DNA from: Kiritimatiellia bacterium
GTDB lineage: Bacteria; Verrucomicrobiota; Kiritimatiellia; RFP12; JAAYLN01
Assembly: GCA_017458965.1 (NCBI GenBank)
Contig: JAFSZJ010000014.1
Location: 1 to 48,004, forward strand
Length of the DNA: 48,004 bases
Reading direction: 5' to 3'
Shown: piece after piece, positions 631-47,242 of the stretch
Numbering within the stretch: the first letter of the stretch is position 1
Layout of the letters: every line of letters starts with the position of its first letter
Position numbers and translations under genes: made by a program
Notes under the pieces: model-generated
Database searches by the model: none
Told to the model about the DNA's origin: nothing
The model's input: the letters and a program-made list of their open reading frames with translations, nothing else

Positions 631-655
631 CTTTCAACTTTTCAACCTTTCAACC
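631..655. repeat. 3 x 8-nt tandem repeat (C/T)TTTCAAC ending 1 nt before the bioB ATG
   Basis: Read directly: ctttcaac ttttcaac ctttcaac c ATG. Confidence 0.9.
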
Positions 656-1678
656 ATGATTACCGCATCTGCCCTTGCCTCTCGGCTGATCGCCGGCGGC
701 GCACCCGCCACAGCGGAGGAACTGATCGATTTGCTGCGACATGCCCCACGCGAGGAACTGTACGCCGCCGCACATCGCGTCACGACGGCCTTTGCGCCGA
801 AGCGTTTTGACTTCTGCGGCATAGTGAGCGCGCGCGCTGGCCGCTGCTCGGAGAACTGCAAGTGGTGCGCACAGAGCGCCCACTGGAAGACGGGATGCGA
901 GAGCCATGGCTGGATTGGTACGGAGGCCTGCGTCCAGTCCGCCGCGGATGCCGAGGCGCATGGCGTCGGGCGCATCGGTATAGTCACGAGCGGTCGCGCC
1001 CAGACGCCGGACGATATCGATGCGCTATGCGACGCCCTGCGTGCGATGAAGGCGCAAACGCGCATTCACCTTTGCGGTTCGCTGGGGCTGTTGGCCGAGG
1101 ATGACTTGCGCCGTCTCAAGGAGGCGGGCCTCGAGCGCGTGCACTGCAACATCGAGACTGCGCCGTCGCTTTTCCCCACACTCTGTTCCACGCACACGCA
1201 GGAGCAGAAGCTCGAAACGCTCCGCGCCGCGAAACGTCTAGGCCTCGAGATCTGCTGCGGCGGCATCATCGGGATGGGCGAGACGGACGAGCAGCTCGTC
1301 GAATTCGCCCTGGCGCTCGCCGAGATCGCGCCAGCATCAATCCCGGTGAACATCCTCCATCCCATCCATGGAACGCCGCTTGGCGCCCGTCCTTTTCTTG
1401 ACGAAGCCCGCATTCTCGATTCCATCGCCATCCTGCGCCTTGCCAATCCCAAGACGCCATTGCGTTTCGCCGGCGGACGCGCCCGCCTCTCCGACGACAC
1501 GGCCCGCCGTGCCATATACTGCGGCATCAACGCCGGAATCGCAGGACCTCTCCTCACAACCCCCGGAGCCGACTACGCCGACGACCGAGCACTCGCCGCC
1601 GAAGCGGGGTATGATGTGGATCAGGAATTGAGAAACCATTACTTCAATTCGGCCATTAACCCCAGCACACATCAATGA
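656..1678 (+). CDS. bioB: biotin synthase-like radical SAM enzyme
   Basis: ATG at 656. CSENCKWCAQS is a CxxxCxxC radical SAM motif. IHLCGSLG, ICCGGIIGMGET, IPVNILHPIHGTPL and RFAGGR line up by eye with BioB. Confidence 0.75.
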   Translation: MITASALASRLIAGGAPATAEELIDLLRHAPREELYAAAHRVTTAFAPKRFDFCGIVSARAGRCSENCKWCAQSAHWKTGCESHGWIGTEACVQSAADAEAHGVGRIGIVTSGRAQTPDDIDALCDALRAMKAQTRIHLCGSLGLLAEDDLRRLKEAGLERVHCNIETAPSLFPTLCSTHTQEQKLETLRAAKRLGLEICCGGIIGMGETDEQLVEFALALAEIAPASIPVNILHPIHGTPLGARPFLDEARILDSIAILRLANPKTPLRFAGGRARLSDDTARRAIYCGINAGIAGPLLTTPGADYADDRALAAEAGYDVDQELRNHYFNSAINPSTHQ

Positions 1679-2157
1679 AAGTACAACCTCCATCATCGTA
1701 TTCCCTGAGTGCTTCGGAGCGTCTCCGCCGTGCGCTCTTCGCCATGGTAGCCGGCGCGGCCGTGACGGCGGCAGGGCAGTCCCCAGCGCCTGCCACCAAG
1801 GCGGACACCGCGGAGGCGGACCCCAAGGCCCTCGTTCCGCGGACAATCGATTTCGGCGACGAGCGGATTCCCATGACGCCGATGCTGATAGTCCCGGACA
1901 TGAAGGACTTGCAGGAGATGACACCCCGCCCTCTCGCGACATTTTCACCGGAGGAACTCGCACGGCTTAGGGAGAAGTTCCTCGCGCAGAAGGCAAAAAT
2001 CGCGCTTTCTTCTGATCAGTATTCCGCTGTTTCAAACGCGGTCAGGACCGCTACATCGAACGCGGCCGCGATTGCTGCGACGACAACCAACGCTGTCTCA
2101 ACGGCGAAGGATGCAGTTGGGCAGCAGGCCACAGACACTGAAGCGGGCAAGCCCTGA
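1675..2157 (+). CDS. hypothetical exported protein (Sec/Tat-like signal peptide, Ala/Thr/Ser-rich C-terminus)
   Basis: The ATG overlaps the bioB stop (ATGA at 1675-1678). The N-terminus SERLRRALFAMVAGAAVTAAG resembles a twin-arginine/Sec signal. No Cys and no domain I recognise. Confidence 0.5.
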   Translation: MKVQPPSSYSLSASERLRRALFAMVAGAAVTAAGQSPAPATKADTAEADPKALVPRTIDFGDERIPMTPMLIVPDMKDLQEMTPRPLATFSPEELARLREKFLAQKAKIALSSDQYSAVSNAVRTATSNAAAIAATTTNAVSTAKDAVGQQATDTEAGKP

Positions 2158-2158
2158 C

Positions 2159-3262
2159 ATGGGACTCACGCTCTGCGTCACCCACGACTGCAACCTGCGC
2201 TGCACCTACTGCTACGCGGGGGAGAAGCGTCATGTGGCGATGTCGCGCGAAACGGCGTTTCGCGCCATCGACTTCGCCCAGGGACACCATCTGGCGACGC
2301 ATCCGCATGGAACGCCATTCGTCCTTGGGTTCTTCGGCGGCGAGCCGCTGCTTGAATGGGACCTCGTGCAGGCCGCGGACGATTACGCGGCGGAATCTTG
2401 CCGCAAGGCCGGGATCCCGCTTGGACGCACCCTTACGACAAACGGCACGCTCCTCGACCCGGAGCGGATTGCCTGGATGGGGGAGCGCCGCTACCGCCTT
2501 GGCGTCTCAATCGACGGTGGCCAGTCGCTCCACGACCGCCAGCGCCAGTTCCCCGACGGACGCGGTTCTTTCACCGCCGCAACCCGCCATCTTGCGCTCC
2601 TCGAGGCGCTTCGGCCCGCCCCGGAGCTTTTCTGCACGGTTGACCCCGCCACGGTGCGGCTCGTCCCGGATGCGATCGGGGACCTCGCCTCGCGCACTTC
2701 GCTGCGGATCGCGCTAAACCCGAACTACGAGGCTCGGTGGGACGAAGCGGCCGCGGCGGCCTTCGAGGAGGCATGGCGCGCGCTTGCAGACCTTGTCCTC
2801 GCGTCCTATCGCATGGGGCGCCCGATCCGGCTCACATGGTTCGAGGGCAAGGTGCAGACTCTTCTTCTGGGCGGATACCGCGACTGCGACCGCTGCGCCC
2901 CGGTCCGGCGGGAACTCGCATGCGCCCCGTCAGGCAACCTCTACCCATGCGCGGCGCTCGTGGGGGACGACGACCGCCAAGACCTGCTGCTTGGAAACAT
3001 CCGCGACGGCTTCGACCCTAACGCGCTCGCCCGCATGGCCTCCCGCGTCGGAAACCGCAACGAAGCGTGCCGGAACTGCCCCGCGGCCCCTCGCTGCATG
3101 AACTGGTGCTTCTGCAACAACTGGCATGCCACAGGATCGCCAGACCTGGTCTCGCCCCTACTTTGCCTTCACGAACGCCTTTCAATCAATCTGGCGGACC
3201 AGATCGCCGAAATCCTAATCGCCGAGCGCAACGCCGCATTCGCCTCCATCTTCGGGCGGTAG
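2159..3262 (+). CDS. radical SAM / SPASM-domain maturase (anaerobic sulfatase-maturating-enzyme-like)
   Basis: In-frame ATG at 2159, 1 nt after the upstream stop (the ORF track starts at 2072). It has a CNLRCTYC radical SAM motif and GFFGGEPLL. The C-terminal Cys clusters CDRC..CAPSGNLYPC and CRNCPAAPRCMNWCFC are typical of SPASM auxiliary Fe-S sites. Confidence 0.7.
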   Translation: MGLTLCVTHDCNLRCTYCYAGEKRHVAMSRETAFRAIDFAQGHHLATHPHGTPFVLGFFGGEPLLEWDLVQAADDYAAESCRKAGIPLGRTLTTNGTLLDPERIAWMGERRYRLGVSIDGGQSLHDRQRQFPDGRGSFTAATRHLALLEALRPAPELFCTVDPATVRLVPDAIGDLASRTSLRIALNPNYEARWDEAAAAAFEEAWRALADLVLASYRMGRPIRLTWFEGKVQTLLLGGYRDCDRCAPVRRELACAPSGNLYPCAALVGDDDRQDLLLGNIRDGFDPNALARMASRVGNRNEACRNCPAAPRCMNWCFCNNWHATGSPDLVSPLLCLHERLSINLADQIAEILIAERNAAFASIFGR

Positions 3263-3271
3263 TTAGAGCGG

Positions 3272-3301
3272 TTGGCGCCAAGTAGGTCCTTAGCGTATAA
3301 T
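3272..3301 (+). promoter_or_regulatory. candidate sigma70-type promoter: TTGGCG - 18 nt - TATAAT
   Basis: Hexamers read at 3272-3277 and 3296-3301. An ATG lies exactly 7 nt after the -10 box (3309). Confidence 0.35.
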
Positions 3302-3308
3302 TGATGCC

Positions 3309-5755: not shown

Positions 5756-8191
5756 ATGAACATGAATTCATCCAGTTCCGCGTCAGACCTGCATCCTCGC
5801 CGTTTTTCCGTCACGGGCATGCATTGCGCCGCCTGTTCCACGCGGGTCGAGCGCACCGTCTCGAAAATCCCAGGCGTCACCTCATGCGCCGTCAGCCTGC
5901 TCACAAACGAGATGTCCGTCACCGGAGCCGCCAGCGATGAGGAAGTCGTTGCGGCGGTGGTCAAGATCGGCTTTGGCGCGACGCCTCTGGATCGGAACGT
6001 CGAAAGTCGAAAGTCCCAGGTCGAAAGTCGAAGGTCCCAGGTCGAAAGTCGAAAGTCGGAAGTCGAAAGTCAGACGGCCGGGGTGGAAACTCCGCGTCCT
6101 GTCGGCGCGGTTCTTCAAGCCGCGTCCGGGCACGGTGTACGGCTCTTCGCCTCGCTCGTGCTGCTTGCGATCCTGATGTACGCCACAATGGGCCACATGA
6201 TGTTCGGATGGCCGCTGCCGCGCTGGTTCACGGAGCCGGAGCCGAACCATGTCGCGATGGGCCTTGTGCAACTGCTTTTGTCGGGCGCGGTGCTCGTGAT
6301 CAACCGGCGGTTCTTCACCTCCGGCTTCCGCGCCGTCATGCACGGTTCGCCTAACATGGATACCTTGGTCGCCCTTGGCGCGGGCGCGGCCTATGCCTGG
6401 AGCGTTGCGGTCCTCTTCCTCATGACGCGCGCGCAAGTCCTCGGCGGCACGGCCGCCGCAGAGGCGTGGATGGGGCAGTACTACTTCGAAAGCGCCGCGA
6501 TGATCGTGACGCTGATCACCGTAGGCAAGCTTCTCGAGGAACGCGCAAAAGGCAAGACGACGAGCGCACTCGCCGACGTGTTGCGCCTTGCGCCAAAGAC
6601 GGCTACCGTCCTGCGTGACGGACGCGAAACCGAGGTCCCGGCCTCGCAGGTCCGTGTCGGCGACATATTTCTCGTCCGTCCCGGGGAGAACATCCCGGTT
6701 GATGGCATTGTCGATGAGGGCGAGAGCGCCGTCAACGAGTCGGTCCTGACGGGAGAGAGCGTCCCCGTCGACAAGGCTCCGGGTGCCATGGTCTCCGCCG
6801 CCACTTTGAATGTCTCGGGCTTCCTGCGCTGCCACGCGACGAGGGTGGGGGAGGACACCACACTCGCGCAGATCGTGCGCCTCATGCAGGATGCCGCCGC
6901 CACCAAGGCGCCGATCGCGCGACTCGCCGACCGGGTGTCGGCGGTTTTCGTACCGGCCGTTCTGCTCGTCGCGCTCGTCACGCTTGGCGTCTGGCTCGCA
7001 TGCGGCGCCGCGCCTGGCTTCGCCCTTGCCCGCGCGATTTCGGTGCTCGTCGTAAGCTGCCCCTGCGCTCTTGGCCTCGCGACGCCAGTGGCTATCATGG
7101 TCGGAAGCGGCGTGGGGGCACGGCGCGGCCTCCTCTTCAAGACAGCCACCGCGCTTGAAGCCGCAGGGCGGGCTCAGATAGCAGTTCTCGACAAGACCGG
7201 CACCGTCACTTCCGGAGAGCCTGAGGTTGTTGGCGTATTCGCCAACGGCGAAGACGCCAACGACAAGGACGAAATAAGAAGTACGAAGGACGAAGGGGAG
7301 TTGCTTGCGTTTGCTGCGGCGCTGGAAAGAGGCAGCGAGCATCCGCTCGCGAAGGCCATCGTCCGTTTCGCAGCGAAACTTTCAACTTTCAACTCTCAAC
7401 TTTCAACTGGCGGCGGTGAAGTCGCCGCCTTTCATGCTCTGCCCGGTTGCGGCGTGGAGGCGATCATCGGCGGACAACCGGCCTTCGGCGGCAGTGTGGT
7501 CGCAGCCGAGGAGCGCGGCATAGAACTTTCCCCTGGATTGCGCGCCAAGGCAGACGAGGCCGCCATCAAGGGCGCGACGCCCCTTGTCTTCGCGCAAGAT
7601 GGCAGGGCGCTTGGCATGATTGCCGTGGCCGATGCCCCCAAGCCCGACGCGGCGGTCGCCGTCCGCAACCTTCACGACCTTGGCTTAAGAGTCCTGCTCC
7701 TGACTGGCGACAACGAGCGCACCGCCCGCGCCGTCGCGGAATCCGTTGGCATTGGCGAAGTGATCGCCGGCGTGCTGCCTGATGGCAAGCACCATGTCGT
7801 CGAAGACCTCAAGAAGCAGGGACGGGTCGCCATGGTCGGTGATGGCGTGAACGACGCGCCTGCTCTAGCGGCGGCCGATCTGGGACTCGCCATCGGGGCT
7901 GGTACGGATGTCGCCATAGACGCGGCCGGAGTGGTGCTGGTCCATTCTCGCCTTTCCGATGTAGCCGCCGCGTTGCGCCTTGGCAGGGCGACGCTTCGCA
8001 ACATCAAGGAGAACCTCTTCTGGGCATTCCTCTATAATGTGCTGCTGATCCCGTTGGCGGCAGGCCTCTGGTATCCGCTCTTCGGCTGGAAGATGCATCC
8101 GGACCTCGGAGCGTTGGCGATGAGCCTCTCCAGCTTCTGCGTCGTCCTGAACGCCCTCCGCCTCAACTACGCGCGGCTCGACCCGCGCTAA
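5756..8191 (+). CDS. copA: copper-translocating P1B-type ATPase
   Basis: HMA domain GMHCAACSTRVE, CPC motif (SCPCALGLATP), DKTGTVT phosphorylation site, and the GDGVNDAPALA hinge. Confidence 0.93.
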   Translation: MNMNSSSSASDLHPRRFSVTGMHCAACSTRVERTVSKIPGVTSCAVSLLTNEMSVTGAASDEEVVAAVVKIGFGATPLDRNVESRKSQVESRRSQVESRKSEVESQTAGVETPRPVGAVLQAASGHGVRLFASLVLLAILMYATMGHMMFGWPLPRWFTEPEPNHVAMGLVQLLLSGAVLVINRRFFTSGFRAVMHGSPNMDTLVALGAGAAYAWSVAVLFLMTRAQVLGGTAAAEAWMGQYYFESAAMIVTLITVGKLLEERAKGKTTSALADVLRLAPKTATVLRDGRETEVPASQVRVGDIFLVRPGENIPVDGIVDEGESAVNESVLTGESVPVDKAPGAMVSAATLNVSGFLRCHATRVGEDTTLAQIVRLMQDAAATKAPIARLADRVSAVFVPAVLLVALVTLGVWLACGAAPGFALARAISVLVVSCPCALGLATPVAIMVGSGVGARRGLLFKTATALEAAGRAQIAVLDKTGTVTSGEPEVVGVFANGEDANDKDEIRSTKDEGELLAFAAALERGSEHPLAKAIVRFAAKLSTFNSQLSTGGGEVAAFHALPGCGVEAIIGGQPAFGGSVVAAEERGIELSPGLRAKADEAAIKGATPLVFAQDGRALGMIAVADAPKPDAAVAVRNLHDLGLRVLLLTGDNERTARAVAESVGIGEVIAGVLPDGKHHVVEDLKKQGRVAMVGDGVNDAPALAAADLGLAIGAGTDVAIDAAGVVLVHSRLSDVAAALRLGRATLRNIKENLFWAFLYNVLLIPLAAGLWYPLFGWKMHPDLGALAMSLSSFCVVLNALRLNYARLDPR
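5999..6075 (+). repeat. 11 x 7-nt tandem repeat GTCGAAA (variants GTCCCAG, GTCGAAG, GTCGGAA) inside copA
   Basis: Read directly. The 21-nt superperiod encodes VESRKSQ VESRRSQ VESRKSE VESQ between the HMA domain and TM1. Confidence 0.9.
7253..7296 (+). repeat. about 6 x 7-nt repeat GNACGAA inside copA
   Basis: gacgcca acgacaa ggacgaa ataagaa gtacgaa ggacgaa; encodes EDANDKDEIRSTKDEGE after the DKTGT motif. Confidence 0.75.
7379..7408 (+). repeat. 4 x 7-nt tandem repeat CTTTCAA inside copA
   Basis: ctttcaa ctttcaa ctctcaa ctttcaa ct; encodes LSTFNSQLST. Confidence 0.9.
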
Positions 8192-8203: not shown

Positions 8204-8766
8204 ATGAACGAAAACTCCGAAATCCGGCCGAACGGCCGCGCTCTCATCCCGTTCCTCGTCTTCGTCGCCTTCTACCTCGGGCTCTCGCTGCAGGCCGGCG
8301 ACTTCTACCGGGTGCCGATGCCGATCGCGTTCATCGTCGCCTCCGCGGCGGTCTGCTCGGCCTTATCCGCCACAACGGCGGCATCGCGTGGCTCATGGAG
8401 AAAATCGGCGCGATGGTAAGCGGCGCGCGCGGGTGCGAGCTCGGCGTGCTGGTCCTCGTCTTCGCGGTGAATCTCTTCACCGCCAACAACACAGTCGCGA
8501 TCATCGTCGCGGGACCGGTCGCAAAGTCGCTCGCCGACCGCTTCGGCGCGAAGCCAGAGCGCGTGGCGAGCGTCCTCGACACCGGCTCGTGCATCCTGCA
8601 GGGCGTGATTCCATACGGCGCGCAGCTGCTGATGGCGGTCTCGCTTGCGGCCGGCGCGGGCGTGAAGGTCGGCGCGTTCCCGCTCATCGGGCGCCTCTAC
8701 TACCAGGCGCTCCTGCTTGTCGTCGTCCTAGTCGCCATCGCACTTCCTCGCCGCCGCGCGCGGTGA
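8204..8766 (+). pseudogene. nhaC: NhaC-family Na+/H+ antiporter remnant (large internal deletion plus frameshift)
   Basis: ORF 8204..8419 gives an NhaC-like N-terminus (ALIPFLVFVAFYLGLSLQAGDFYRVPMPIAFIVASA). A different frame from about 8345 (GLIRHNGGIAWLMEKIG...ANNTVAIIVAGPVAKSLADRFG...GVIPYGAQLLMA) gives the NhaC C-terminus. Roughly 250 central codons expected for this family are absent. Confidence 0.65.
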
Positions 8767-10520: not shown

Positions 10521-12203
<1,683 letters not shown>

Positions 12204-13929: not shown

Positions 13930-15879
13930 ATGCAAAACGAAGCGCACAACCCGTCAAGCGCTGAGCGCCGCAGGCTATACCGGCGGCTTCTCGCCTTCAC
14001 CAAACCGTACCGGCTGCGGCTTGCTCTGGGCATCCTCGCCGGCATGATGAGCGCGGGGACGCTCTTCGTCATCTTCGACAACGCCAACGACGCCGTCGCC
14101 TCCTTTCGCTCCGGCACCAGCCATGCCGCAACCCAACCCGCAACTTCCAACACTCCAACTCCTCAACCTTCAACTCCCAACTCCCCGACTCCCCAACCCT
14201 CAACCCCGGACGACAAGCTCCAGGCGAAGATAGAGCGCGTCGAGAGGACTTTGGCCAGTCATGGGCTGCATGTGAGCATCCGCAACGCCGACAACACGAT
14301 CACGTGGCAGGGGCTCGTGATCGTCATGCTTGCGATCCCGCTGCTCATCATCTTCCGCATAATCACATCGGTTCTCAACCACTACTGCATGAGGTGGGTG
14401 GGTGCCGCGGTCGTCCGCGATCTGCGCGACTCGCTCTTCTCCACGCTTCAACGCCAGTCGCTGAAGTTCTACGGGCGCATCGACATCGGCGAGCTGATCA
14501 GCCGCTGCGTCAACGACACCGCCAGCGTCGAGCATGTCGTCTCAAGCACCATCGCCAACGCCGCCCGCGCCCCGTTCGAGATAATCGCGGTCCTTCTCTG
14601 GGCCGCGAAGTATTCGATCGAGAACGGGATCGGACGGTTCGTCCTGGCCATCGCGGTGTTCCTGCCGCTCTGCGTGCTGCCGATACTCATACTTGGCCAG
14701 CGAGTGAAGCGCTGGACGAAGAAGTCCCTGGAGCGCATATCGTTCGTCGTCTCGCGCATGCACGAGAACTTTACCGGCATACGCGTGGTCAAGGCATTCA
14801 ACACGGAGGCGAAGGAGGAGTCCCGCTTCAAGGCCCTGGACAACGACTACTTCCGCGCAGTGGTCAAGACCTTCCGCGCCGAGATCCTGATGTCGCCGCT
14901 GATGGAGGCGGTCATAGCCGTCATAGGCATGGCCTTCGTCGTCGCATGCTTCATCCTCAAGATCGACCTGATCAAGATCGCCATGGTGGCGACCGCCATC
15001 TACCTCTCCTACCGTCCGCTCAAGGAGATCGCGCAGATCAGCGCGTGGCTCCAGCGTGGCGCCGCCGCCCTCCAGCGAATATTCTCGATACTCGACACGG
15101 ACACCTCGCTTCCCGAGCCGGCGAAGCCTGTGCCGAAGAAGGACTTCACGGACAGGATCGTCTTCGACCATGTCTCGTTCGCCTTCTCCGCCGATGGACC
15201 CGAGGTCGTGCATGACGCGGCGTTCGAGGTGCCGCGCGGATCGCTCGTGGCCCTCGTCGGCGAGACCGGCTCCGGAAAATCGACTTACGCCAACCTCCTT
15301 GCGCGCTTCTACGATCCGACATCCGGCTCCGTCACCCTCGACGGCATAGACCTTCGCGACATCGCCACCCCCGACCTCCGCTCGCTGATCGGCGTCGTCA
15401 CGCAGGATACGATCCTTTTCAACGACACCATCGCGGCCAATATTGCCTATGGCACGGAAGGGGCGTCGATGGACGCTGTCGTGGACGCCGCGAAGATGGC
15501 GAACGCCCATGAGTTCATCGTCGCCCATCCGGACGGCTACGACCGCGTATGCGGCGACAAGGGCTTTCTGCTCTCCGGCGGCGAGAAGCAGCGCATCGCG
15601 CTCGCTCGCGCCATCCTGCGCAACCCGCCTATCCTCATCCTCGACGAGGCCACGAGCGCCCTCGACACCGTCACGGAGCGCCTTGTGCAGGACGCCATCG
15701 CAAAGGTCATGGCCAGCCGCACGACCCTCGCCATAGCGCACCGCCTTAGCACCGTCCGCGACGCGTCGCTCATCCTCGTCATCGACAAGGGGCGCATTGT
15801 CGAGCGCGGCACCCACGACCAGCTATACGCGGCAGGTGGCCGCTACCGCCGTCTTTGCGACATGCAGCTGGCGGGATAA
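13930..15879 (+). CDS. ABC exporter, fused permease/ATPase (MsbA-like)
   Basis: Walker A GETGSGKST, signature LSGGEKQRIALARA, Walker B ILILDEATSALD, and N-terminal TM domain. ATG 13930 lies 12 nt after the upstream stop and is preferred over GTG 13897. Confidence 0.85.
   Translation: MQNEAHNPSSAERRRLYRRLLAFTKPYRLRLALGILAGMMSAGTLFVIFDNANDAVASFRSGTSHAATQPATSNTPTPQPSTPNSPTPQPSTPDDKLQAKIERVERTLASHGLHVSIRNADNTITWQGLVIVMLAIPLLIIFRIITSVLNHYCMRWVGAAVVRDLRDSLFSTLQRQSLKFYGRIDIGELISRCVNDTASVEHVVSSTIANAARAPFEIIAVLLWAAKYSIENGIGRFVLAIAVFLPLCVLPILILGQRVKRWTKKSLERISFVVSRMHENFTGIRVVKAFNTEAKEESRFKALDNDYFRAVVKTFRAEILMSPLMEAVIAVIGMAFVVACFILKIDLIKIAMVATAIYLSYRPLKEIAQISAWLQRGAAALQRIFSILDTDTSLPEPAKPVPKKDFTDRIVFDHVSFAFSADGPEVVHDAAFEVPRGSLVALVGETGSGKSTYANLLARFYDPTSGSVTLDGIDLRDIATPDLRSLIGVVTQDTILFNDTIAANIAYGTEGASMDAVVDAAKMANAHEFIVAHPDGYDRVCGDKGFLLSGGEKQRIALARAILRNPPILILDEATSALDTVTERLVQDAIAKVMASRTTLAIAHRLSTVRDASLILVIDKGRIVERGTHDQLYAAGGRYRRLCDMQLAG
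14131..14208 (+). repeat. CAAC-phased 7/8-nt repeat inside the ABC exporter
   Basis: CAAC recurs at spacings 7,8,8,7,7,8,8,7. It encodes TSNTPTPQPSTPNSPTPQPSTP between the first two predicted TM segments. Confidence 0.8.
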
Positions 15880-19013: not shown

Positions 19014-19069
19014 GGGAAAGAGGGCTTGGACCTGGGTGTCCGCGACAGGGCGCGAACCACAAAACTCAT

Positions 19070-19104
19070 ATCTGCTATCTGTTATCTACTATCTACTATC
19101 TAAA
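19070..19104. repeat. 5 x 7-nt tandem repeat ATCT(G/A)(C/T)T
   Basis: atctgct atctgtt atctact atctact atctaaa. It overlaps the stop codon (TAG 19096-19098, minus strand) and last two sense codons of the ATPase gene. Confidence 0.9.
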
Positions 19105-21783: not shown

Positions 21784-23361
21784 TCAGTAGGCCGCCATGC
21801 GCATCGAGGCCGAAGCGCCGTCAGGTGACCTTGACAGCAGAACCGCGACGCGGCACGGCGCCGCGAAGGTAGCGAGGAACCTGTCAGCCGCCTCTATGAT
21901 GGACCTGTCGCCGGCATCGAGCCGCACGATGCCGAGCATAGTCGCCATGCGGGAGAGCGCGAGTATCTGCCGGCATTCGTCCGCAAGTCGGGAGAAATCA
22001 ATCCAAAGGTATCCGACCGGCATTCCGTCCGCGTCGTTCGCGGCGTTGGCATCGAACCATTCGCGCCATGGCGCCGATTCCGGCGCGGCGGCCGCGCGCT
22101 GCGCTTTGAAGCTGGCCATCGACGAGCAGAAGGTAAGACCATGGTTCCTGCGGTCAAGTTCGAAGACCCCGTTCTCCTCCGGGTATGTCTTGAATACGGC
22201 GTTGCCTTTTTGCCAGCGCAAGGGCACAAGAAGACTTCCACCCTCGTCCATAGGCGACTGCATCTGCGGGTACTTGCCTCCGTTCGCCATCATCGCGATG
22301 GCATGGGCGACGTCATCCTTCGAAAGCACCAGCCCGGGGCAGAGGATCGTCAGCGCCGGAATCCGGATTCCGAATAGCGATCCGCCACATGGCGCACCCG
22401 ACAGATATGCCACGGCATCTTCCTTGCCGGCGTTCTCGAGAGGTGGCGCGCTGATCGCCAGCAGGTTCTCTATGTCCTTGGCGGCTGCGGCGCCTGGAAG
22501 GGCGAGAATTGCGAACGCACCGTCGGCATCAAGCGCCGAGGCCTTCGCGTTCCTGCCCGTCAGCCGACCGGCCGAGGCCATCCTTTTGGCCATATCGCCC
22601 TGAAGCGTCACATCCCCGTCCGCGACGAAACGTCCGCGCGCGAGTTCCAGGACGCGGATCTCCGGCGAGGAGCCGAAGTGCCCGTCGCGTATCCAGACGC
22701 GGTGAAGCGTACGGCCGCGGCTCTCCCATGGACGCCGTCCGCCGAAGACCGTGGATGGTCCGGCATCCTCATCGATGCGTCGTTCCAGCTCGCGGACGGC
22801 GTCGCCATCGGTGGAAAGGGCGGCGAGAAGGACGTTCTTGCGCATCGCGAAGCCTACCTTGAGGTCGCTAGGATGGCGTTCGGTGCCTAGCGGCAGATAG
22901 CGCGATCCGCCTGGCGCGATTTCAAGGCGTCCAAGACCGGGGATCCAGCGCGTCTTCAGCAGAAAGAGCAGTACGAGCCTACGCCATCCCGCATGGCTTG
23001 CGCCGTATAGGATCGGGTCTCCGCCGACATCGGGGGACGGCGTCACCGCGAGCACCGTGTTCCGTCCGGTCGTCAGCGGGATGAGGATGCGCCAGCCTGG
23101 AGCGTCGCGCAATTCCGCCACATCGACGCCTGTCGCCTCGAGGAGGTTCGACACGGCAGGAAGCGACACCACGTCGCGCCACCGCGACCTCACGGAGAAG
23201 TTGTCGCATGCCACGACCGACTCCTCCGGCATGGCGGCGTAGGGCACGGACGGGAACTCGCGCGAATGGGCGAGAAGGACGATCACCGCAAGCAGCGCCC
23301 ATGGCATCGCACGGTAAAGGCGCCAGCGTACATTCTGCATTGTGCATTCTGCATTGTGCAT
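21784..23361 (-). CDS. hypothetical membrane-anchored/secreted protein
   Basis: Long ORF with a hydrophobic N-terminus (MPWALLAVIVLLAHS) and no motif I recognise. The start is ambiguous: in-frame ATGs at 23361 and 23340 (inside the heptamer array) and at 23307. Confidence 0.5.
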   Translation of the reverse strand: MHNAECTMQNVRWRLYRAMPWALLAVIVLLAHSREFPSVPYAAMPEESVVACDNFSVRSRWRDVVSLPAVSNLLEATGVDVAELRDAPGWRILIPLTTGRNTVLAVTPSPDVGGDPILYGASHAGWRRLVLLFLLKTRWIPGLGRLEIAPGGSRYLPLGTERHPSDLKVGFAMRKNVLLAALSTDGDAVRELERRIDEDAGPSTVFGGRRPWESRGRTLHRVWIRDGHFGSSPEIRVLELARGRFVADGDVTLQGDMAKRMASAGRLTGRNAKASALDADGAFAILALPGAAAAKDIENLLAISAPPLENAGKEDAVAYLSGAPCGGSLFGIRIPALTILCPGLVLSKDDVAHAIAMMANGGKYPQMQSPMDEGGSLLVPLRWQKGNAVFKTYPEENGVFELDRRNHGLTFCSSMASFKAQRAAAAPESAPWREWFDANAANDADGMPVGYLWIDFSRLADECRQILALSRMATMLGIVRLDAGDRSIIEAADRFLATFAAPCRVAVLLSRSPDGASASMRMAAY

Positions 23362-23372
23362 CGTGCATTACC
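23331..23372. repeat. 6 x 7-nt tandem repeat CAT(T/C)(C/G)TG (minus strand CA(G/C)(A/G)ATG)
   Basis: cattctg cattgtg cattctg cattgtg catcgtg cattacc. It spans the cpaF stop and the 5' end of the next ORF. Confidence 0.9.
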
Positions 23373-32655: not shown

Positions 32656-34948
32656 ATACATGCACCACACTTCCTTCGTACTTCGCACTTTTTACTTTGT
32701 ACTTGCGGCGGCGCTGGCTGTCTCCGCGGCCAGCGCCGCACGCCCCGTCGCGCGGTGGGATGTTGTGCCCGACCAGCGTATTTCCGGCGTTTTCAACGCC
32801 GGCGTCTGCGCCTTCAACGAGGACGGTGTGTCCGTGGAGTTCTCCGTTGATGGCAAAGTCATGCATGTTGCGGACGCGCCGGCGCTTAATCCAAGAACCG
32901 GCGTCTGGGAATATGTATTTCCGGTCGATACGGCCACCCTGGCCGACGGCCCCGTAATCCTTGGCGCCCGCGCCATTACGAAAGGCGCGTCTTCGGAGGA
33001 ATACGACCTTCCGCCGCTCCCGCTCTATGCGAACAGCGGTGGCTCGCTCACCGTCGCGGACACTCTCTGGGTCGATGCCGCAAAGGGCGACGACGCAGCC
33101 GACGGTACGAAAGCCGCCCCGCTGTGCACCCTCGCCGCAGCCGTCAAGCGGATGAAGGCCGGCGGAACAATCCTCCTGATGGCTGGCGAGTATTCCTCCG
33201 ATGGTTTGAATGGTGGTTCAAAGCGCCCATACTGGACCACGATCACGGCTGCGCCCGGGGTTGACCGCGACGATGTCCAGATCGGCCCGGGGCGGCCAGG
33301 CACGCAGCGCCTCCGCTTCCGTGGCGTGACGCTCTACTGCGACGCCAAGTCCGGCTACGCAACCATTCTTGCCGGGGAGAACGGCAACAACTCGGTCTGG
33401 CTTGACGACTGCAAGTGCTACAACCGACAGGGGCGTTGGAGCGCCAATTCAAATGTCTTCGGGAACCGCTATGTCGGCTATGTCACGGGTGGCATCACCA
33501 CGGAAATGAACAACGGCCCTGGGGCCGACTTGATCCGAGACCACGAAGTCCGCAGGATCGCCTCGGATGTATGGACCGGCTCGAACAAGCTGGTGGTGAA
33601 CTGTACGGCCACCGATGTGGACGCCGGATCGACCGGCGCCCACCCCGATTTCCACCAGTCGTACGCCGTCGAACCGGGCTGGGTGCATGACGTGATCCTC
33701 TACAACGTCACCGGATACAACTGTAGGTGCCAGGGGCTGTTCGGTCTACGCCTGCGCGATTCCGCCTTCGTCAACGTCGTCTTCGAGCGCACGGAGGACA
33801 CGAAGTTCTACACGCAGTATTCGGGGCCTATGGACAATGTGCTCTTCGCGCATGTCACTTTGCTGAACCAGACCTGGGCCTGGCGCGCAAGCTTCTCGCC
33901 CAGCGATGTCCGTGTCATCAACTGTTGCATGAGGGAGATGGCGGAATGGTCCGACGCCCACCTCGATGGTTCCGGCACGAACGGACTTCTGGTCTCGAAC
34001 TGCTTCTTTTATAATGAAAAGGGAAGGTTCGGCCTCAACGCGCTTTCCGGCGACCCGGGGTTCGCCGATCCTTCGGCGTCGGACTACTCGTTCAGACCGG
34101 ACTCCCCGGCCCTTGCCAACTTCCGTCCGCTCCAGTGCGTTCCGATCGATTTCCGCGGCAAGCCGTTCCGAGACGCCTCATGGAAGGTAGATGAGGTGAA
34201 TATGGACCATGCTTGGCGCTTCGCCGATTGCGCGGCGATCAAATCGGGAAGCGCGAGGCTGTATCGTGCGACCGGCAACCGCAGGAACGTGACAGTCGGC
34301 GTCAACGCAGGGCATGGGACGGATGGCGGACAGTCCGTCAAGACATACTGCCATCCAGACAGGTCGCCTAAGGTCACCGGGGGCACGACGGCGGCCGGCG
34401 CGATCATGGCTGTCGCGGTTTCCGGCGGCATGACCTTCAAGGACGGGACGAAGGAGGCGCAGGTCACGCTGGAAGCCGCGAGGCTATTGAGGGACGGGCT
34501 GCTCGCGAATGGGTATGACGTCCTCATGCTGAGGGATGGGGACGACGTGCAGCTCGACAACGTCGCCCGCACCGTCATCGCCAACAACGTCGCGGACTGC
34601 CTGATATCGCTGCACTGGGACGGCGACGGCCTCGGATATGACAAAGGCTGCTTCTACATATCCGTGCCGGAGGGGCTGAAGAACATGGTACCGGTTTCGG
34701 AGCGCTGGCGTGAGCATGAGAAGCTCGGGGCTGCGCTCATCGCGGGACTCGGAGTCAAGGGGTGCAGGATACACGGCGACGGGAAGGTGGCCATAGACCT
34801 GACGCAGACCTCGTACAGCACAATCCCTTCTGTCGATGTCGAGCTCGGGAACCAGTGCTCGACCCATGACAATGCGGCGCTATCGACGATCGCCGAAGGA
34901 TTGCTTGAAGGCGTCGAGGCGTTCTTCGGTCCTGCGGAAACGCCGTAG
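32642..34948 (+). CDS. secreted right-handed beta-helix protein fused to a C-terminal Amidase_3 (N-acetylmuramoyl-L-alanine amidase) domain
   Basis: Signal peptide (FVLRTFYFVLAAALAVSAASAARP). LWVDAAKGDDAADGTKAAPLCTLAAAVKRMKAGGTILLMAGEY is a typical beta-helix/DUF1565 cap. The C-terminal NAGHGTDGG...EAQVTLEAARLL...ADCLISLHWDG...VDVELGN fits Amidase_3 Zn/catalytic positions. The start at 32642 or 32648 overlaps the upstream stop. Confidence 0.7.
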   Translation: MTMGKYMHHTSFVLRTFYFVLAAALAVSAASAARPVARWDVVPDQRISGVFNAGVCAFNEDGVSVEFSVDGKVMHVADAPALNPRTGVWEYVFPVDTATLADGPVILGARAITKGASSEEYDLPPLPLYANSGGSLTVADTLWVDAAKGDDAADGTKAAPLCTLAAAVKRMKAGGTILLMAGEYSSDGLNGGSKRPYWTTITAAPGVDRDDVQIGPGRPGTQRLRFRGVTLYCDAKSGYATILAGENGNNSVWLDDCKCYNRQGRWSANSNVFGNRYVGYVTGGITTEMNNGPGADLIRDHEVRRIASDVWTGSNKLVVNCTATDVDAGSTGAHPDFHQSYAVEPGWVHDVILYNVTGYNCRCQGLFGLRLRDSAFVNVVFERTEDTKFYTQYSGPMDNVLFAHVTLLNQTWAWRASFSPSDVRVINCCMREMAEWSDAHLDGSGTNGLLVSNCFFYNEKGRFGLNALSGDPGFADPSASDYSFRPDSPALANFRPLQCVPIDFRGKPFRDASWKVDEVNMDHAWRFADCAAIKSGSARLYRATGNRRNVTVGVNAGHGTDGGQSVKTYCHPDRSPKVTGGTTAAGAIMAVAVSGGMTFKDGTKEAQVTLEAARLLRDGLLANGYDVLMLRDGDDVQLDNVARTVIANNVADCLISLHWDGDGLGYDKGCFYISVPEGLKNMVPVSERWREHEKLGAALIAGLGVKGCRIHGDGKVAIDLTQTSYSTIPSVDVELGNQCSTHDNAALSTIAEGLLEGVEAFFGPAETP
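32669..32707 (+). repeat. about 5 x 7-nt repeat ACTTNNN inside the signal-peptide coding region
   Basis: acttcct(tcgt) acttcgc acttttt actttgt acttgcg; encodes TSFVLRTFYFVLA. Confidence 0.75.
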
Positions 34949-36135: not shown

Positions 36136-36171
36136 GGCCTTAAGGTCCTTAAAGTCCTTAAGGTCCTTAAA
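36136..36171. repeat. 4 x 9-nt tandem repeat G(G/T)CCTTAA(G/A)
   Basis: ggccttaag gtccttaaa gtccttaag gtccttaaa in the rpsG-fusA spacer. It contains the palindromes CTTAAG/CCTTAAGG. Confidence 0.9.
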
Positions 36172-36201: not shown

Positions 36202-38322
36202 ATGCCACAGGTTGCGGAAAAACCGAGAATTGACGCGAAGGGGACGGCTGACGCCGCCCTGGCCGAGCGTCTGTCCGCCATCCGCAACATCGGCATCATC
36301 GCGCACATCGACGCCGGCAAGACGACGACGACGGAGCGCATCCTCTTCTACACCGGCGTCTCGCACCGCATCGGCATCGTCGATGACGGCAACACGGTCA
36401 CCGACTGGATGGAGCAGGAGCGTGAGCGCGGCATCACAATCACGAGCGCGGCGATCACGTGCTCGTGGAAGGGCCGGGAGATCAACATAATCGACACCCC
36501 TGGCCACGTCGATTTCACGATCGAGGTCGAAAGGTCCCTGCGCGTCCTCGACGGCGCGGTGGCGGTCTTCTGCGCGGTCGGCGGCGTCCAGCCGCAGTCC
36601 GAGACGGTTTGGCGCCAGGCCGACCGCCACGGTGTCCCGCGCCTCGCCTTCGTGAACAAGATGGACCGCATGGGCGCGGACTTCAACCGCGTCGTCGGCG
36701 AGATCCGCGAGAAGCTTGGCGCCACTCCGGCGGTCATTGCCTTCCCGTGGGGAAGCTCGGAGACGTTCCAGGGGACGATTGACCTTCTCTCGATGAAGGC
36801 GCTCCGCTACTCCGAGGCCGACAACGGTTCGACAATTGAGACGCTCCCGATCCCATCCGAGCTCGCCGTGGAGGCCGAAAGGCGCCGCGCCGAGCTCGTG
36901 GAGCTCATAGCGGGCGACGACGAGGAGCTCATCGAGGCCTACCTCGAGAACCCCGACCTCTCGGCCGAGACGCTGATACCGGCGATCCGCCGCGCCACGA
37001 TTGCCGGCCGCGTCGTCCCGGTCTACTGCGGTTCATCGCTGCGCGACAAGGGCGTGCAGCCGCTTCTGGACGGCATAGTCGATTTCCTCCCGTCCCCTCT
37101 CGACCGCAAGGCCATCGAGGGCACTGACATCAAGACCGAGGCCTCGGTTTCGCGCGAGTGCACCGATCCGCTTCTGACTAGCCTCGTCTTCAAGATCGCG
37201 ACGGATGCCTTTGTCGGCCGCCTCTTCTTCGTGCGCGTCTATTCGGGCGTGATGAAGAAGGGCCAGAACGTCTTCAACCCGCGCACCCGCAAGCGCGAGC
37301 GGATCCTCCGCCTCGTGCGCCTCGCGGCGGACGAGAAGACCGATGTCGAGGAGCTTGCGGCCGGCGAGATCGGCGCGATAGTCGGCCTCAAGGGCGCGAC
37401 GACGGGCGACACGCTCTGCTCGGAGATGAAGCCGCTCGTGCTCGAAAGCATCACGGCGCCCGAGCCGGTGATGTTCATGGCGATTGAGCCGAAGTCGCGG
37501 GCCGACCGCGACAAGCTCTCCGAGGCGCTCGCCGAGCTGGCGGCCGAGGATCCAACCTGCGTCGTGCGCGAGGACGCGGAGAGCGGACAGACGATTTTGA
37601 GCGGCATGGGCGAGCTCCACCTCGAGATACTGGTGGACCGTCTCGGCCGCGAATTCCATGTGGCGGCCAACACCGGCAAGCCGATGGTCTCCTACTACGA
37701 GACCGTGACGGCGACCGGCGAGGGCGGTGCTGTCTTCGACAGGGAGATAGGCGGCAAGCGCTTCTACGCGGCCGTCACCGTCGAGGTCTCGCCGAGGAAG
37801 CGCGGGGAGGGGAGCGTGGTCGAGGCCAAGGAGGCCGCGCGCGTTCTCCCGCCGGAGCTCGCCGAGGCGGTGGAGCAGGGATTGCAGGACGGGATCGGCA
37901 CGGGTGTGCTGGCCCGGTATCCGATGATGGATCTCGCGGCGAAGGTCGTGAAAGTCGAAATGGGCGAGCCGGACAGCGCTTCGCCCGTCGCCTTCCGCAC
38001 CGCCGCCGTGATGGCGTTCCGGGAGGCGGCCGGCAAGGCCTCGCCCGAAATGCTCGAGCCGGTCATGCGGCTCACGATCGTCACACCGGCCGAGTCGGTC
38101 GGCGAAGTGATCGGCGACGTGAACGCGCGCCGCGGACAGGTGCGCGACATGGAGGAACGGGGCGGCACGAAGGTCGTGGACGCCGACGTTCCGCTCGCGG
38201 AGCTATTCGGCTACGCGACGGCAGTCAGGTCGCTCACGCGGGGACGCGCGAGCTACACGATGGAGCCGTCCGCGTTCGCGGTGGCGCCTCGGGCGGTAAA
38301 GGAACGGTTGTTGAACAGGTAG
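36202..38322 (+). CDS. fusA: elongation factor G
   Basis: [28 protein letters not shown] and NKMDR G-domain motifs. 706 aa. Confidence 0.95.
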
Positions 38323-38332
38323 CGGTGAAAGC

Positions 38333-38641
38333 ATGCAGAGTCAGCGCATACGCATACGGTTGCAGGCCTACGATCACAAAGTGCTCGACCAGGCCGTCAC
38401 GAGCATAGTGGATACCGCCCGCGGGTCGGGCGCGAGGGTTGTGGGCCCGGTGCCCCTGCCGACGCGCATCGAGCGCTGGACGGTTAACCGCAGCCCCCAT
38501 GTGGACAAGAAGTCGATGGACCAGTTCGAGATGCGGACGCACAAGCGGCTGGTCGACATCGTCAGCCCGACCGCCAAGACGGTCGATGAGCTAAAGAAGC
38601 TCAACCTCCCGGCTGGCGTGGACATCTCCATCCGCATCTAG
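38333..38641 (+). CDS. rpsJ: 30S ribosomal protein S10
   Basis: [15 protein letters not shown]...[21 protein letters not shown]. Confidence 0.95.
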
Positions 38642-41047: not shown

Positions 41048-41050
41048 CAG

Positions 41051-42778: not shown

Positions 42779-42810
42779 GTTCGCGTGGCCGACGTGAAAG
42801 GAGCCATCTT

Positions 42811-43298: not shown

Positions 43299-43300
43299 CC

Positions 43301-43666: not shown

Positions 43667-43676
43667 GAGGAGCGGC

Positions 43677-43991: not shown

Positions 43992-44001
43992 GAGGATATC
44001 G

Positions 44002-44544: not shown

Positions 44545-44558
44545 CGGCAGGAGGGAAT

Positions 44559-44744: not shown

Positions 44745-44768
44745 GCTAGGAAGGGCAGGTACCATACA

Positions 44769-45161: not shown

Positions 45162-45194
45162 CCCCCGGGCCGCCGGCAACAAGGAACAACAGCA

Positions 45195-45734: not shown

Positions 45735-45762
45735 CGCCGCCTGATAGGAGTTTCAACGCACT

Positions 45763-46131
45763 ATGAAGAACCGCATTGATCAGCGCCGCCTGCGCCACCA
45801 GCGCCTCCGTCAGAAGGTAAAGGGCACGGCCGCACGCCCCCGCATGGCCATCGCCATGTCCAACAAGAACATCAACGTCCAGTTCATCGACGACGACGCG
45901 GGCAACACCCTCGCCTCCTACTCGACCGTCGGGACCGACGCCAAGCTCAACATCGCGACCGCCAAGGACGCCGGCGCCAAGGCCGCCGAAGCCGCCCTCG
46001 CCAAGGGAATCTCCCTCGTGGTCGTCGACCGCGGCGGATTCAAGTACCACGGCCGCGTCAAGGAGCTCGTCGAGGCGGCAGTCGCCGCCGGGATCAAGAT
46101 CTCCGTCAAGAACGCAGAGGAGTCTAAGTAA
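45763..46131 (+). CDS. rplR: 50S ribosomal protein L18
   Basis: [20 protein letters not shown]...[16 protein letters not shown]. Confidence 0.93.
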
Positions 46132-46637
46132 TGGAACAGCGTGAACAGCGCGGACGCCGCGACGGCGCCGCCCCCCAGCAGGAAAACGAGTTTGACGAGC
46201 GCCTGGTCTTCATCAACCGCTGCTCGAAGGTCGTCAAGGGCGGCCGCCGCTTCAGCTTCTCCGCAGTCGTCGTCGTCGGCGACCGCGAGGGCCGCGTCGG
46301 CTTCGGCTTCGGCAAGGCCAACGAGGTCTCCGAGGCCATCCGCAAGGGCGGCGACGCCGCCCGCCGCGACATGATGACCGTCACCATGCGCGGACGCACC
46401 ATCCCGCACGAGGTCACCGGCGTCTCCGACGGCGGCCGCGTCCTCCTCAAGCCGGCGCCCGACGGCTCCGGCGTCATCTGCGGCGGCGGCATGCGCCCCG
46501 TCCTCGAGGCCGCCGGCGTCCGCGACGTCGTCGGCAAGTCGCTCGGCAGCAAGAACCGCCTCAACGTCGTCAAGGCCACCATTGAAGCCCTCAAGAAGCT
46601 CCGCTCGGCCGAGGAACTCGCGGCGGAACGCGCCTAA
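46131..46637 (+). CDS. rpsE: 30S ribosomal protein S5
   Basis: TAATG overlap with rplR; [24 protein letters not shown]. Confidence 0.95.
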
Positions 46638-46648
46638 TGACATCAAAC

Positions 46649-46671
46649 GGGCCGGGCCACGCGCCCGGCCC
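46649..46671 (+). promoter_or_regulatory. stable GC hairpin (9-bp stem GGGCCGGGC/GCCCGGCCC, 5-nt loop) in the rpsE-rplO spacer
   Basis: Perfect inverted repeat read directly, with no U-tract afterwards. The AGGAG Shine-Dalgarno of rplO follows at 46675-46679. Confidence 0.55.
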
Positions 46672-46685
46672 CACAGGAGTTTAAA

Positions 46686-47123
46686 ATGGATCTCAGCACT
46701 CTCCACAACGAACCAGGCGCCCGCCACGCCGCCAAGCGCCGCGGCCGCGGCCACGCCTCCGGCCTCGGCAAGACCGCCGGACGCGGCAACAAGGGCCAGT
46801 TCTCCCGCAAGGGCCACAAGCACAAGGACTCCTTCGAAGGCGGCCAGATGCCCCTCATCCGCCGTCTCCCGAAGCGCGGCTTCAAGAACCCCGCCCGCTG
46901 CCCGTTCTTCGGCGTCAACGTCGGGACCCTCCAGGACAAGTTCCCCGCCGGAAGCGAAGTCACCCCGTGCGCCCTCGCGGACGCCGGCCTCGCCGATGGC
47001 TGCCGCGTCAAGATCCTCGGCACGGGCGACATCTCCGTCGCCCTCACCGTGAAGGCCAACGCCTTCTCGGCCTCCGCCAAGGCCAAGATCGAGGCCGCCG
47101 GCGGCAAGTGCGAAATAATTTAG
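46686..47123 (+). CDS. rplO: 50S ribosomal protein L15
   Basis: KRRGRGHASGLGKTAGRGNKGQ. Confidence 0.95.
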   Translation: MDLSTLHNEPGARHAAKRRGRGHASGLGKTAGRGNKGQFSRKGHKHKDSFEGGQMPLIRRLPKRGFKNPARCPFFGVNVGTLQDKFPAGSEVTPCALADAGLADGCRVKILGTGDISVALTVKANAFSASAKAKIEAAGGKCEII

Positions 47124-47125
47124 GA

Positions 47126-47242
47126 GTTTGACGGTTTGACAGTTTGACAGTTTGACAGTTTTTACCGCCTGGCAGTAAACCGTCAAACCGTCAAACCGTC
47201 AAACCGTCAAACAAATAGCCGAAAACCGTCAAACTGCAAACC
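47126..47242. repeat. inverted pair of 8-nt tandem arrays: GTTTGAC(N) x4, 12-nt centre, CCGTCAAA x4, plus one more CCGTCAAA copy downstream
   Basis: Read directly. Arms 47126-47157 and 47181-47212 can pair as four 7-bp helices separated mostly by A.C mismatches, plus apical TTTAC/GTAAA pairing. It lies between the rplO stop (47123) and the secY ATG (47254). Confidence 0.9.

Follow-up and report, generated by a model that had tools for sequence, protein, structure and literature searches.

Tandem 7- to 9-nt repeat arrays inside genes and in gene spacers of an uncultured rumen member of the Kiritimatiellae

Twelve arrays of tandemly repeated 7-, 8-, or 9-nt units lie in the 48,004-nt stretch of DNA analyzed here (the window), from an uncultured rumen member of the Kiritimatiellae, in the Planctomycetes-Verrucomicrobia-Chlamydiae (PVC) group. 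They are an already described kind of bacterial repeat, in a new lineage. They were probably generated by slippage, as arrays of the short tandemly repeated repetitive (STRR) or long simple sequence repeat (LSSR) type, and then filtered by selection, and some of those between genes may have been co-opted as hairpins between cistrons and as unstructured leaders. The arrays are dynamic, growing and shrinking between close relatives, and they act like STRR and LSSR elements yet fit none of the named sequence families.

Inventory, enrichment, and distribution of the arrays

Under a strict Tandem Repeats Finder (TRF) filter (period 5–11, at least three copies, score at least 40), the window contains 10 arrays (0.21 per kb), against a mean of 0.075 in 200 dinucleotide-preserving shuffles and 0.125 in shuffles within 150-nt blocks, with a maximum of three. 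More arrays than composition predicts is one of the two features that define LSSR, and comparison with composition-matched shuffles was a check for which the original prediction had asked at the scale of the genome; on the window, it came out in favor of that prediction. Eighty natural loci around fusA from diverse unrelated bacteria (1303 kb) served as controls. These have 40 arrays (~0.03 per kb), half of them from two Nostocales loci and one Candidate Phyla Radiation (CPR) locus. The density in the window is thus about seven times the typical bacterial background, on a par with that of STRR-rich heterocystous cyanobacteria (0.27–0.42 arrays per kb in the Nostocales control loci, L044 and L060).

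The same holds for close relatives. Contigs of related rumen Kiritimatiellae have 53 arrays in 216 kb (the window and 13 related loci), compared to 48 in the 1303 kb of controls, and nearly all have periods of 7 (n = 27), 8 (n = 15), or 9 (n = 8). No arrays of 3- or 6-nt units were found in these 216 kb at the same threshold. Octamers make up 15 of the 53 clade arrays and two of the 48 control arrays. Family- or order-level relatives (EF-G 58–69% identical) have almost no arrays, and more distant PVC relatives have none at the rpsG–fusA and rplO–secY spacers. The arrays are identical across at least five independent assemblies from different animals, samples, and studies, and are therefore not assembly artifacts, as one objection foreseen in the original prediction would have had it. 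Its broader proposal, that one process generates or tolerates these repeats rather than a series of independent accidents, is borne out, for a process acting across the lineage, by their abundance in the relatives and by the copy-number differences considered below.

Arrays were located with TRF and by direct reading of the sequence, and all twelve that had been predicted were found in place (Table 1). Nine loci are clear (631, 5999, 7379, 14131, 19070, 23331, 24657, 36136, and 47126). TRF reports strong arrays at 630–655, 5995–6071, 7377–7408, 14132–14207, 19069–19102, 23331–23369, 24669–24772, 36138–36170, 47125–47161, and 47177–47212. Three arrays are weak or degenerate: 7253–7296 (TRF score 36), 32669–32707 (score 34), and 11850–12115, for which TRF gives a period of 30 or 45 in the window and a period of 7, with 64% matches, in the identical contig L101. 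The second defining feature of LSSR is a unit of 1–11 nt repeated head to tail, and TRF periods here are 7, 8, and 9, with 3–13 copies; the units are imperfect (64–92% matches). By gene calls seven arrays are coding and five non-coding, in agreement with the original prediction, and the latter all lie at gene junctions where both neighbors are co-directional.

Table 1. Tandem arrays in the window. Copy numbers follow the unit; SD, Shine-Dalgarno.
Position	Strand	Unit and copies	Location and remarks
631–655	+	CTTTCAAC x3	G-free; fills 30-nt spacer before a radical-SAM/BATS gene, as far as its ATG (656)
5999–6075	+	GTCGAAA x11, 21-nt super-period	CopA linker after HMA domain; encodes VESRKSQ-type 7-aa repeats
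7253–7296	+	GGACGAA, degenerate	Loop 1, CopA nucleotide-binding domain
7379–7408	+	CTTTCAA x4.3	Loop 2, CopA nucleotide-binding domain; near reverse complement of the linker unit
11850–12115	-	AAGGYCG(G), degenerate, ~30 units	Encodes K/R/E/G-rich N-terminal extension of a DEAD-box helicase
14131–14208	+	CCCAACY x10	Encodes P/T/Q/S-rich N-terminal segment of an ABC transporter
19070–19104	-	TAGATAG x5 (sense)	Overlaps ABC ATPase stop codon; spacer before MacB-like permease gene
23331–23372	-	ATGCASA x6 (sense)	Spans FHA-T2SSE ATPase stop and start of following gene
24657–24800	-	CCTCCACT-type 8-nt array, ~13 units	Encodes P/S/T/L-rich linker from FHA to ATPase domain
32669–32707	+	ACTTNNN x5, weak	Codons 8–20 (signal-peptide region) of an amidase-like gene
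36136–36171	+	CCTTAARGT x4, self-complementary (CCTTAAGG)	rpsG–fusA spacer, 30 nt before SD-less fusA start
47126–47161	+	GTTTGACR x4.6	5′ (G/U-rich) arm of rplO–secY spacer hairpin
47177–47242	+	AAACCGTC x4.5 plus further degenerate units	3′ (A/C-rich) arm and unpaired tail; ends 11 nt before SD-less secY start (47254)

The units themselves are varied. It had been claimed that they are AT-richer than their surroundings, and for 10 of the 12 arrays this is so (unit GC 0.29–0.59, background 0.645); the exceptions are 11850–12115 (0.67) and 24657–24800 (0.63). By unit sequence, 48 arrays collapse to 29 families, among which A/T-rich trinucleotides alone are enriched. An AGT/ACT core shared with STRR1, STRR3, and TAACTGA was considered, using the 29 families and a null drawn from the same sequences, and rejected (p = 0.0096 uncorrected, which fails correction for 32 trinucleotides). 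Sharing of unit sequence between loci was rejected as a sign of common descent. The 11-mer and 13-mer said to be shared both exist, but random non-array segments of the same size share k-mers nearly as often (p = 0.03 for k = 11, 0.12 for k = 10, and 0.19 for k = 13), so that the signal is marginal. A bias toward co-directional spacers fared similarly: all five non-coding arrays are in such spacers and none in the three divergent or three convergent ones, as predicted or nearly so, but the bias is not significant in the window (Fisher p = 0.54).

As to the source, rumen metagenome contigs match the window, and the species itself was located in metagenome assemblies only. The nearest named proteins are from metagenome-assembled genomes (MAGs) of Kiritimatiellae. 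For EF-G, the nearest loci in species-representative genomes, among the matches listed, are from Lentisphaerales and Kiritimatiellia MAGs, at 61–69% identity. The window has a GC content of 64.5%, and its gene map, from Pfam scans and from gene calls on matching contigs, has 52 genes.

Copy-number change and coding arrays

Contigs of the same species are 99.9% identical and free of indels, with one exception. In L116, 24 nt (three 8-nt units) are missing from the FHA-T2SSE linker array, for a protein of 568 rather than 576 aa. A sister species (95–98% identity; contigs L108, L115, and L122) shows further changes. Its CopA linker array has 14 units, compared to 11 in the window (+21 nt), and its DEAD-box array is 45 nt shorter (6 + 9 + 30), for a protein of 545 rather than 560 aa; the FHA-T2SSE protein of L115 has 574 aa. 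At gene junctions, the ATGCASA array goes from six units to 14 in L115, and the TAGATAG array from five to about 10 in L115 and L122, where it reaches the start codon. The array at 631 is absent from L108 and from L111, in which another gene abuts the start. The ABC-transporter array (14131–14208) is unchanged in L108, the amidase-like one (32669–32707) is indel-free in L001, and the other arrays do not differ between the window and the sister species. All observed changes in coding arrays are multiples of 3 nt (+21, -45, -24, -6); in non-coding arrays, unit number changes by any amount.

One junction differs by more than its array. In the window the TAGATAG array is separated from the MacB-like start by a unique 56-nt segment (19014–19069). 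This segment is absent from L115 and L122, whose expanded array abuts that start, with GGAGATG units providing both a Shine-Dalgarno (SD)-like motif and the ATG.

The pattern of change suggests that arrays are born and turn over at the DNA level through replication slippage, and comparison with relatives shows that they persist only at tolerated sites. Within genes, the survivors are frame-preserving changes only (multiples of 3 nt, among them steps of three units, 21 or 24 nt), at linkers, N-terminal extensions, a signal-peptide region, and surface loops, where the arrays are read as 7-aa-periodic low-complexity peptides. Between co-transcribed genes, unit number changes by any amount, and the unit sequence itself is swapped between species.

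The CopA linker is the most detailed coding example. TRF finds a 7-nt period (78% matches) inside a 21-nt period (90% matches), and each repeat encodes seven differing residues. There is thus no protein-level reason for a 7-nt period, a sign that the array arose at the DNA level and was then duplicated in frame. CopA orthologues (72–82% identity) also have 7-aa-periodic inserts where the three window arrays lie, but of other sequence, with repeats such as TRHSSPV and DIRQSTS at the linker site and KDEGRRTKDE or SDERRVTSDE at loop 1. These inserts are missing from outgroup homologues and from the solved Legionella CopA structure (3RFU).

Some of the CopA arrays also match each other. The predicted duplex between the linker and loop 2 arrays of the window has an energy of -23.4 kcal/mol, and in L111, where the same 35-nt GACGAGT array occurs at both loops, 144 nt apart, with an inverted ACTCGTC array in the linker, the linker/loop duplex reaches -47.6 kcal/mol; none of 300 shuffles was as strong in either case. 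Linker–loop complementarity was rejected as a general rule for CopA, since L114 does not show it, although L111 and the window/L108 lineage do.

A further coding array was seen outside the window genes. In the sister species contig L108 (2073–2163), a 9-nt array (GTTCAGAAG, 10 copies) lies within a DsbD_2/FtrD-like gene, which shows that in-frame units are also present in the coding DNA of this clade.

Spacer arrays and their possible use

The longest spacers in the ribosomal-protein operon are the two with arrays, rpsG–fusA (74 nt) and rplO–secY (130 nt). In both, the position and type of the array are constant in six or more lineages while its length and sequence vary. In relatives whose ribosomal-protein genes are ~88% identical, the rpsG–fusA spacer has three copies of AGTCGWA and then 4.6 of AACGACTA in place of CCTTAARGT; a second version has five copies of AGTTGCT and then 4.6 of CAACGGAC, and a third has six of NNCTAGAA. 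The rplO–secY spacer exists in at least five versions: GTTTGACR/YGTCAAAC, GTTCTCR/GGAACYN, CAGTTGY/GCAACTR, and two mixed forms. The 3′ arm of the GTTCTCR/GGAACYN version has 14 or 24 units, and relatives overall have from 5 to 24 copies in this arm. All follow a common plan, with 4–5 G/U-rich units, a loop, and a longer, at least partly complementary A/C-rich array that ends 0–14 nt before the start codon. A 5′ arm and a longer inverted 3′ array, of unrelated units, were counted in six variants of rplO–secY and in several of rpsG–fusA.

In the window, 47126–47161 and 47177–47212 would form a 35-bp stem (-51.6 kcal/mol, z = -7.7). Predicted sense-strand spacer hairpins have z-scores between -4.5 and -7.7, with surplus 3′ units unpaired. 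For the rpsG–fusA array of the window the predicted hairpin has z = -2.5, and the arrays at 631 (fully) and 19070 are predicted to be unpaired. There was no match in Rfam at gathering thresholds, and no intrinsic terminator was found at the window arrays. In the relative L105, one array is in a 3′ untranslated region (UTR), with a canonical terminator after it.

SD-like motifs are present upstream of 22 of 51 genes, mostly those for ribosomal proteins, the majority of which have one, and none was found upstream of genes that follow arrays. In the window, the gap between an array and the start codon is 0 nt (631–655), 11 nt (from 47242), or 30 nt (from 36171).

A secondary use of the spacer arrays as intercistronic hairpins and unstructured leaders is possible. 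A short G/U-rich 5′ array would pair with part of the longer A/C-rich 3′ array to give a long intercistronic hairpin, and the unpaired A/C-rich remainder would reach the SD-less start codon. Spacers co-opted in this way could control how stable the mRNA of the downstream gene is or how it is processed, and how ribosomes reach that gene, and would be placed where expression must change, from ribosomal proteins to EF-G and from ribosomal proteins to SecY.

Several observations weigh against slippage with selective filtering and co-option as a full account. Slippage alone does not explain how both arms of a hairpin switch unit together, nor the matched and inverted CopA arrays of L111. The CCTTAARGT array is kept in L001 (97.8% identical) although the rest of the rpsG–fusA spacer has diverged, which, as a single case, hints at constraint rather than neutrality. 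On the functional side, the evidence consists of predicted folds and of position. In 12 of 15 spacers tested, including all the Kiritimatiellae rplO–secY and rpsG–fusA spacers but one, the fold of the antisense strand equals or betters that of the sense strand, and the stems have few G-U pairs. Selection at the RNA level is therefore not demonstrated, and a sense-strand-specific RNA structure was rejected on the same two grounds. The CopA matches and the co-varying hairpin arms suggest occasional strand-switching or local copying besides slippage, which could give rise to inverted or duplicated neighboring arrays; selection for pairing is the alternative.

The spacer arrays might instead be, first and foremost, functional cis-elements in a post-transcriptional network, A/C-rich platforms with a 7–8-nt period to which an RNA-binding protein (Rho, S1, or one like Csp or CsrA) binds before SD-less starts, with the 5′ inverted arm as internal antagonist and slippage only tuning the number of copies. 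Most arrays do end 0–15 nt from start codons, and the genes involved lack SD motifs; architecture and polarity (G/U-rich 5′, A/C-rich 3′) are kept across lineages despite unit turnover; and the L001 array is conserved beside a diverging spacer. A like proposal has been made for TAACTGA repeats before fusA, pheS, and ribosomal-protein genes (MacGregor, 2015; PMC4679880). However, there is no common unit among the 29 families, which makes a sequence-specific binder unlikely, and no candidate protein was identified. In addition, seven of the 12 window arrays are coding, the L105 array in a 3′ UTR precedes a terminator, and copy number differs widely among close relatives. Taken together, these make such a role for the arrays unlikely.

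A second alternative is templated copying in place of slippage at the site, either by tiny non-autonomous mobile units or by gene conversion or local template switching, so that arrays of related or inverted sequence would be seeded within 1–2 kb. This would fit the identical and reverse-complementary CopA arrays of L111, the near-complementary linker and loop 2 of the window, and the hairpin arms that co-vary in unit across species. It would also fit GGAACTA arrays in the secY 5′ UTR and TAGTTCC arrays in the 3′ UTR of relatives, and inverted array pairs of the same kind in the Nostocales and CPR control loci. The linker–loop relation is missing in L114, though, and k-mer sharing between window loci is marginal; nothing was seen of target-site duplications, of terminal motifs, or of genes for an associated enzyme, and the changes in sister species are simple gains and losses of units. 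Templated copying as the main source of arrays is quite improbable on this evidence.

A more elaborate version would make the arrays self-renewing “zipper” elements, in which local templated copying or strand-switching keeps the arrays of one transcription unit matched, and local or long-range RNA duplexes and unstructured A/C-rich tails replace SD-dependent initiation and set the relative expression of operon genes. The matched sets could be the two arms of a spacer hairpin, the secY 5′ and 3′ UTRs, and the linker and loops of CopA mRNA. This is a speculative scheme and a doubtful one.

Finally, the arrays are most improbable as contingency loci, in which genes are switched on and off by the frameshift that follows when one 7- or 8-nt unit is added or lost (phase variation): several are in open reading frames (ORFs), with units that are not multiples of three and with variable copy number, but each coding change is a multiple of 3 nt, the imperfection of the units (64–92% matches) suppresses slippage, the genes are for housekeeping or transport rather than surface antigens, and frames are intact in contigs from several samples, most same-species contigs being identical.

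Three other features were noted around these spacers. First, the final 12 nt of rplO in relatives, stop codon included, pair with an inverted copy that is perfect and lies ~9 nt downstream (L093 10982–11017, L096 10310–10345, L097 4703–4738, L100 6290–6322, and L104 on the reverse strand, just after rplO); the window lacks this at 47112–47135. For each of three synonymous changes at third positions (GAAGTCATCTAG to GAGGTGATTTAG), the downstream arm has a compensating change, and a U-G wobble occurs in one variant. The arrangement resembles a conserved hairpin in which the rplO stop codon is sequestered. Second, CRCAAAGNN(N) is present in three copies with a 9–10-nt period at several unrelated genes (L105 1862–1915 and 3130–3185, L091 20121–20148), and immediately downstream come a -10-like element that is itself repeated, TGTACAAT, and a start codon. 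These may be a promoter-associated class separate from the operon-internal arrays.

Third, identity around secY (window region 47124–48004) forms a mosaic. Over its first 750 nt, secY is 93–99% identical to L093, L100, L097, and L096, the ribosomal-protein genes upstream are 87–89% identical to the same contigs, and the spacer between is unrelated. Conversely, L091 has a spacer identical to that of the window, and its flanking genes are only 88% identical. There are either recombination breakpoints at the arrays or chimeric metagenome contigs.

Relation to described repeats and gene context

The STRR heptamers of heterocystous cyanobacteria were reportedly described by Mazel et al. in 1990. 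They are tandem heptamers, dense in operon-internal DNA and described as non-coding. The original prediction named them as the closest analogue, and the comparison is apt in that the Nostocales control loci resemble the window both in array density and in having 5′/3′ inverted pairs. It does not extend to the sequence of the units: no tandem copy of the STRR1–3 consensus (CCCCAGT, TTGGTCA, CAACAGT) is present on either strand of the window, so the arrays are an analogue of STRR rather than a member. The host is also not a heterocystous cyanobacterium but one of the Kiritimatiellae, in another phylum, and seven of the 12 arrays are translated, the other five lying in co-directional spacers, a bias that is not significant in the window.

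For LSSR, the survey of Mrazek, Guo and Shah (2007), as summarized in two later papers (PMC4679880, PMC4692102), found repeats of 5–11-nt units that are longer than chance predicts, enriched in large, high-GC genomes and in non-pathogens, with heptamers commonest, and proposed polymerase slippage as their source. According to those summaries, coding LSSR in the survey are mainly multiples of three, whereas here 7- and 8-nt units are found in ORFs and stay in frame through three-unit steps. The PVC bacteria are not among the lineages that the two summaries name for LSSR.

The original prediction knew of no equivalent in this kind of genome; that claim is not supported, since similar arrays have been published for Xanthomonas (PMC4692102) and for Beggiatoaceae, cyanobacteria, and Bacteroidetes (PMC4679880). 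Heptamer arrays in Xanthomonas (GGGAATC) and Nostoc (GGGGAYT) are 89–93% intergenic, mostly between co-oriented ORFs, often in inverted pairs able to form stem-loops, and mostly transcribed, and their position and type are conserved between species while length and sequence are variable (Rehm et al., 2015; PMC4692102). The window arrays resemble those of Xanthomonas in their high-GC host, tandem 7-nt units, inverted pairs, and conserved position with variable length and sequence. They differ in that the Xanthomonas and Nostoc arrays are one G-rich family with G-quadruplex potential, whereas the units here fall into at least 29 families that are unrelated, mostly AT-richer, and free of G-tracts. 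Octamers and nonamers are also common here, over half of the window arrays are coding, and the host is in the PVC group. Neither GGGNATC nor GGGGAYT has tandem copies in the window.

The TAACTGA repeats of marine Beggiatoaceae, some cyanobacteria, and Bacteroidetes are found a few nucleotides upstream of start codons without ribosome binding sites, in ribosomal-protein operons and upstream of fusA and pheS, with some overlapping the upstream stop codon (MacGregor, 2015; PMC4679880). They are direct repeats without predicted structure, and rare copies within ORFs are at protein termini (PMC4679880). The window arrays are likewise near SD-less starts and inside ribosomal-protein operons, including before fusA, and some overlap an upstream stop codon. 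In contrast to the one dominant TAACTGA unit, present in sets of two to six copies, units here vary by locus, reach 10–30 copies, and are often paired with an inverted arm. There is not even a single TAACTGA unit in the window. A literature search found no paper connecting Kiritimatiellae with tandem repeats.

Repetitive extragenic palindromic (REP) elements and other intercistronic stem-loops make mRNA stability differ between the genes of an operon. Copies of REP elements are scattered, belong to a single palindromic family, and have a dedicated REP-associated tyrosine transposase (RAYT). The spacer arrays are similar in that they, too, are predicted to form long hairpins, which lie between co-transcribed genes at points of change in the expression level needed. 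Unlike REP elements or MITEs (miniature inverted-repeat transposable elements), these hairpins are built locally from tandem units and have no sequence in common, rather than being members of a dispersed family. Downstream of secY, L105 does have GC-rich dispersed repeats (1515–1630 and 2960–3060), for example two copies of GGGAGCGCGGGCATCTTGCCCGCGGCGGT, as well as related GGACGCGCTCC...GCGTCCGCC palindromes; these are REP-like and distinct from the tandem arrays. From phase-variable simple sequence repeats, the arrays are separated by their imperfect units, in-frame coding indels, and mostly identical same-species contigs.

Few features of bacterial genomes have gone unexplained for longer than tandem arrays of 7–9-nt units, from STRR in 1990 to the excess of heptamers across genomes in 2007. 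The Kiritimatiellae clade is a new host for them at the level of phylum. It also provides a dense comparative series, with co-occurring relatives at 88–99.9% identity in which the same spacers and loops differ in unit, length, and copy number. The rate of array turnover, the basis of inverted pairing (selection for RNA structure or copying), and any effect on expression before SD-less genes are therefore testable with existing rumen metagenomes and metatranscriptomes. For annotation, the 7-aa-periodic low-complexity inserts in conserved enzymes of this clade stem from DNA repeats, and start-codon calls close to arrays are unreliable.

Several features of gene order in the window may also be mentioned. 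The rpsJ gene is directly 3′ of fusA (36202–38641), with no tuf gene between the two, and the gap between rpsE and rplO (46638–46685) is a 48-nt spacer without an rpmD (L30) gene. At 8204–8766, a pair of short ORFs, of 71 and 123 aa and with a weak Na_H_antiporter match in one of them, is found at the place where the sister species L108 has an intact gene for a 436-aa Na+/H+ antiporter; the antiporter gene has probably decayed or been deleted in the window species.

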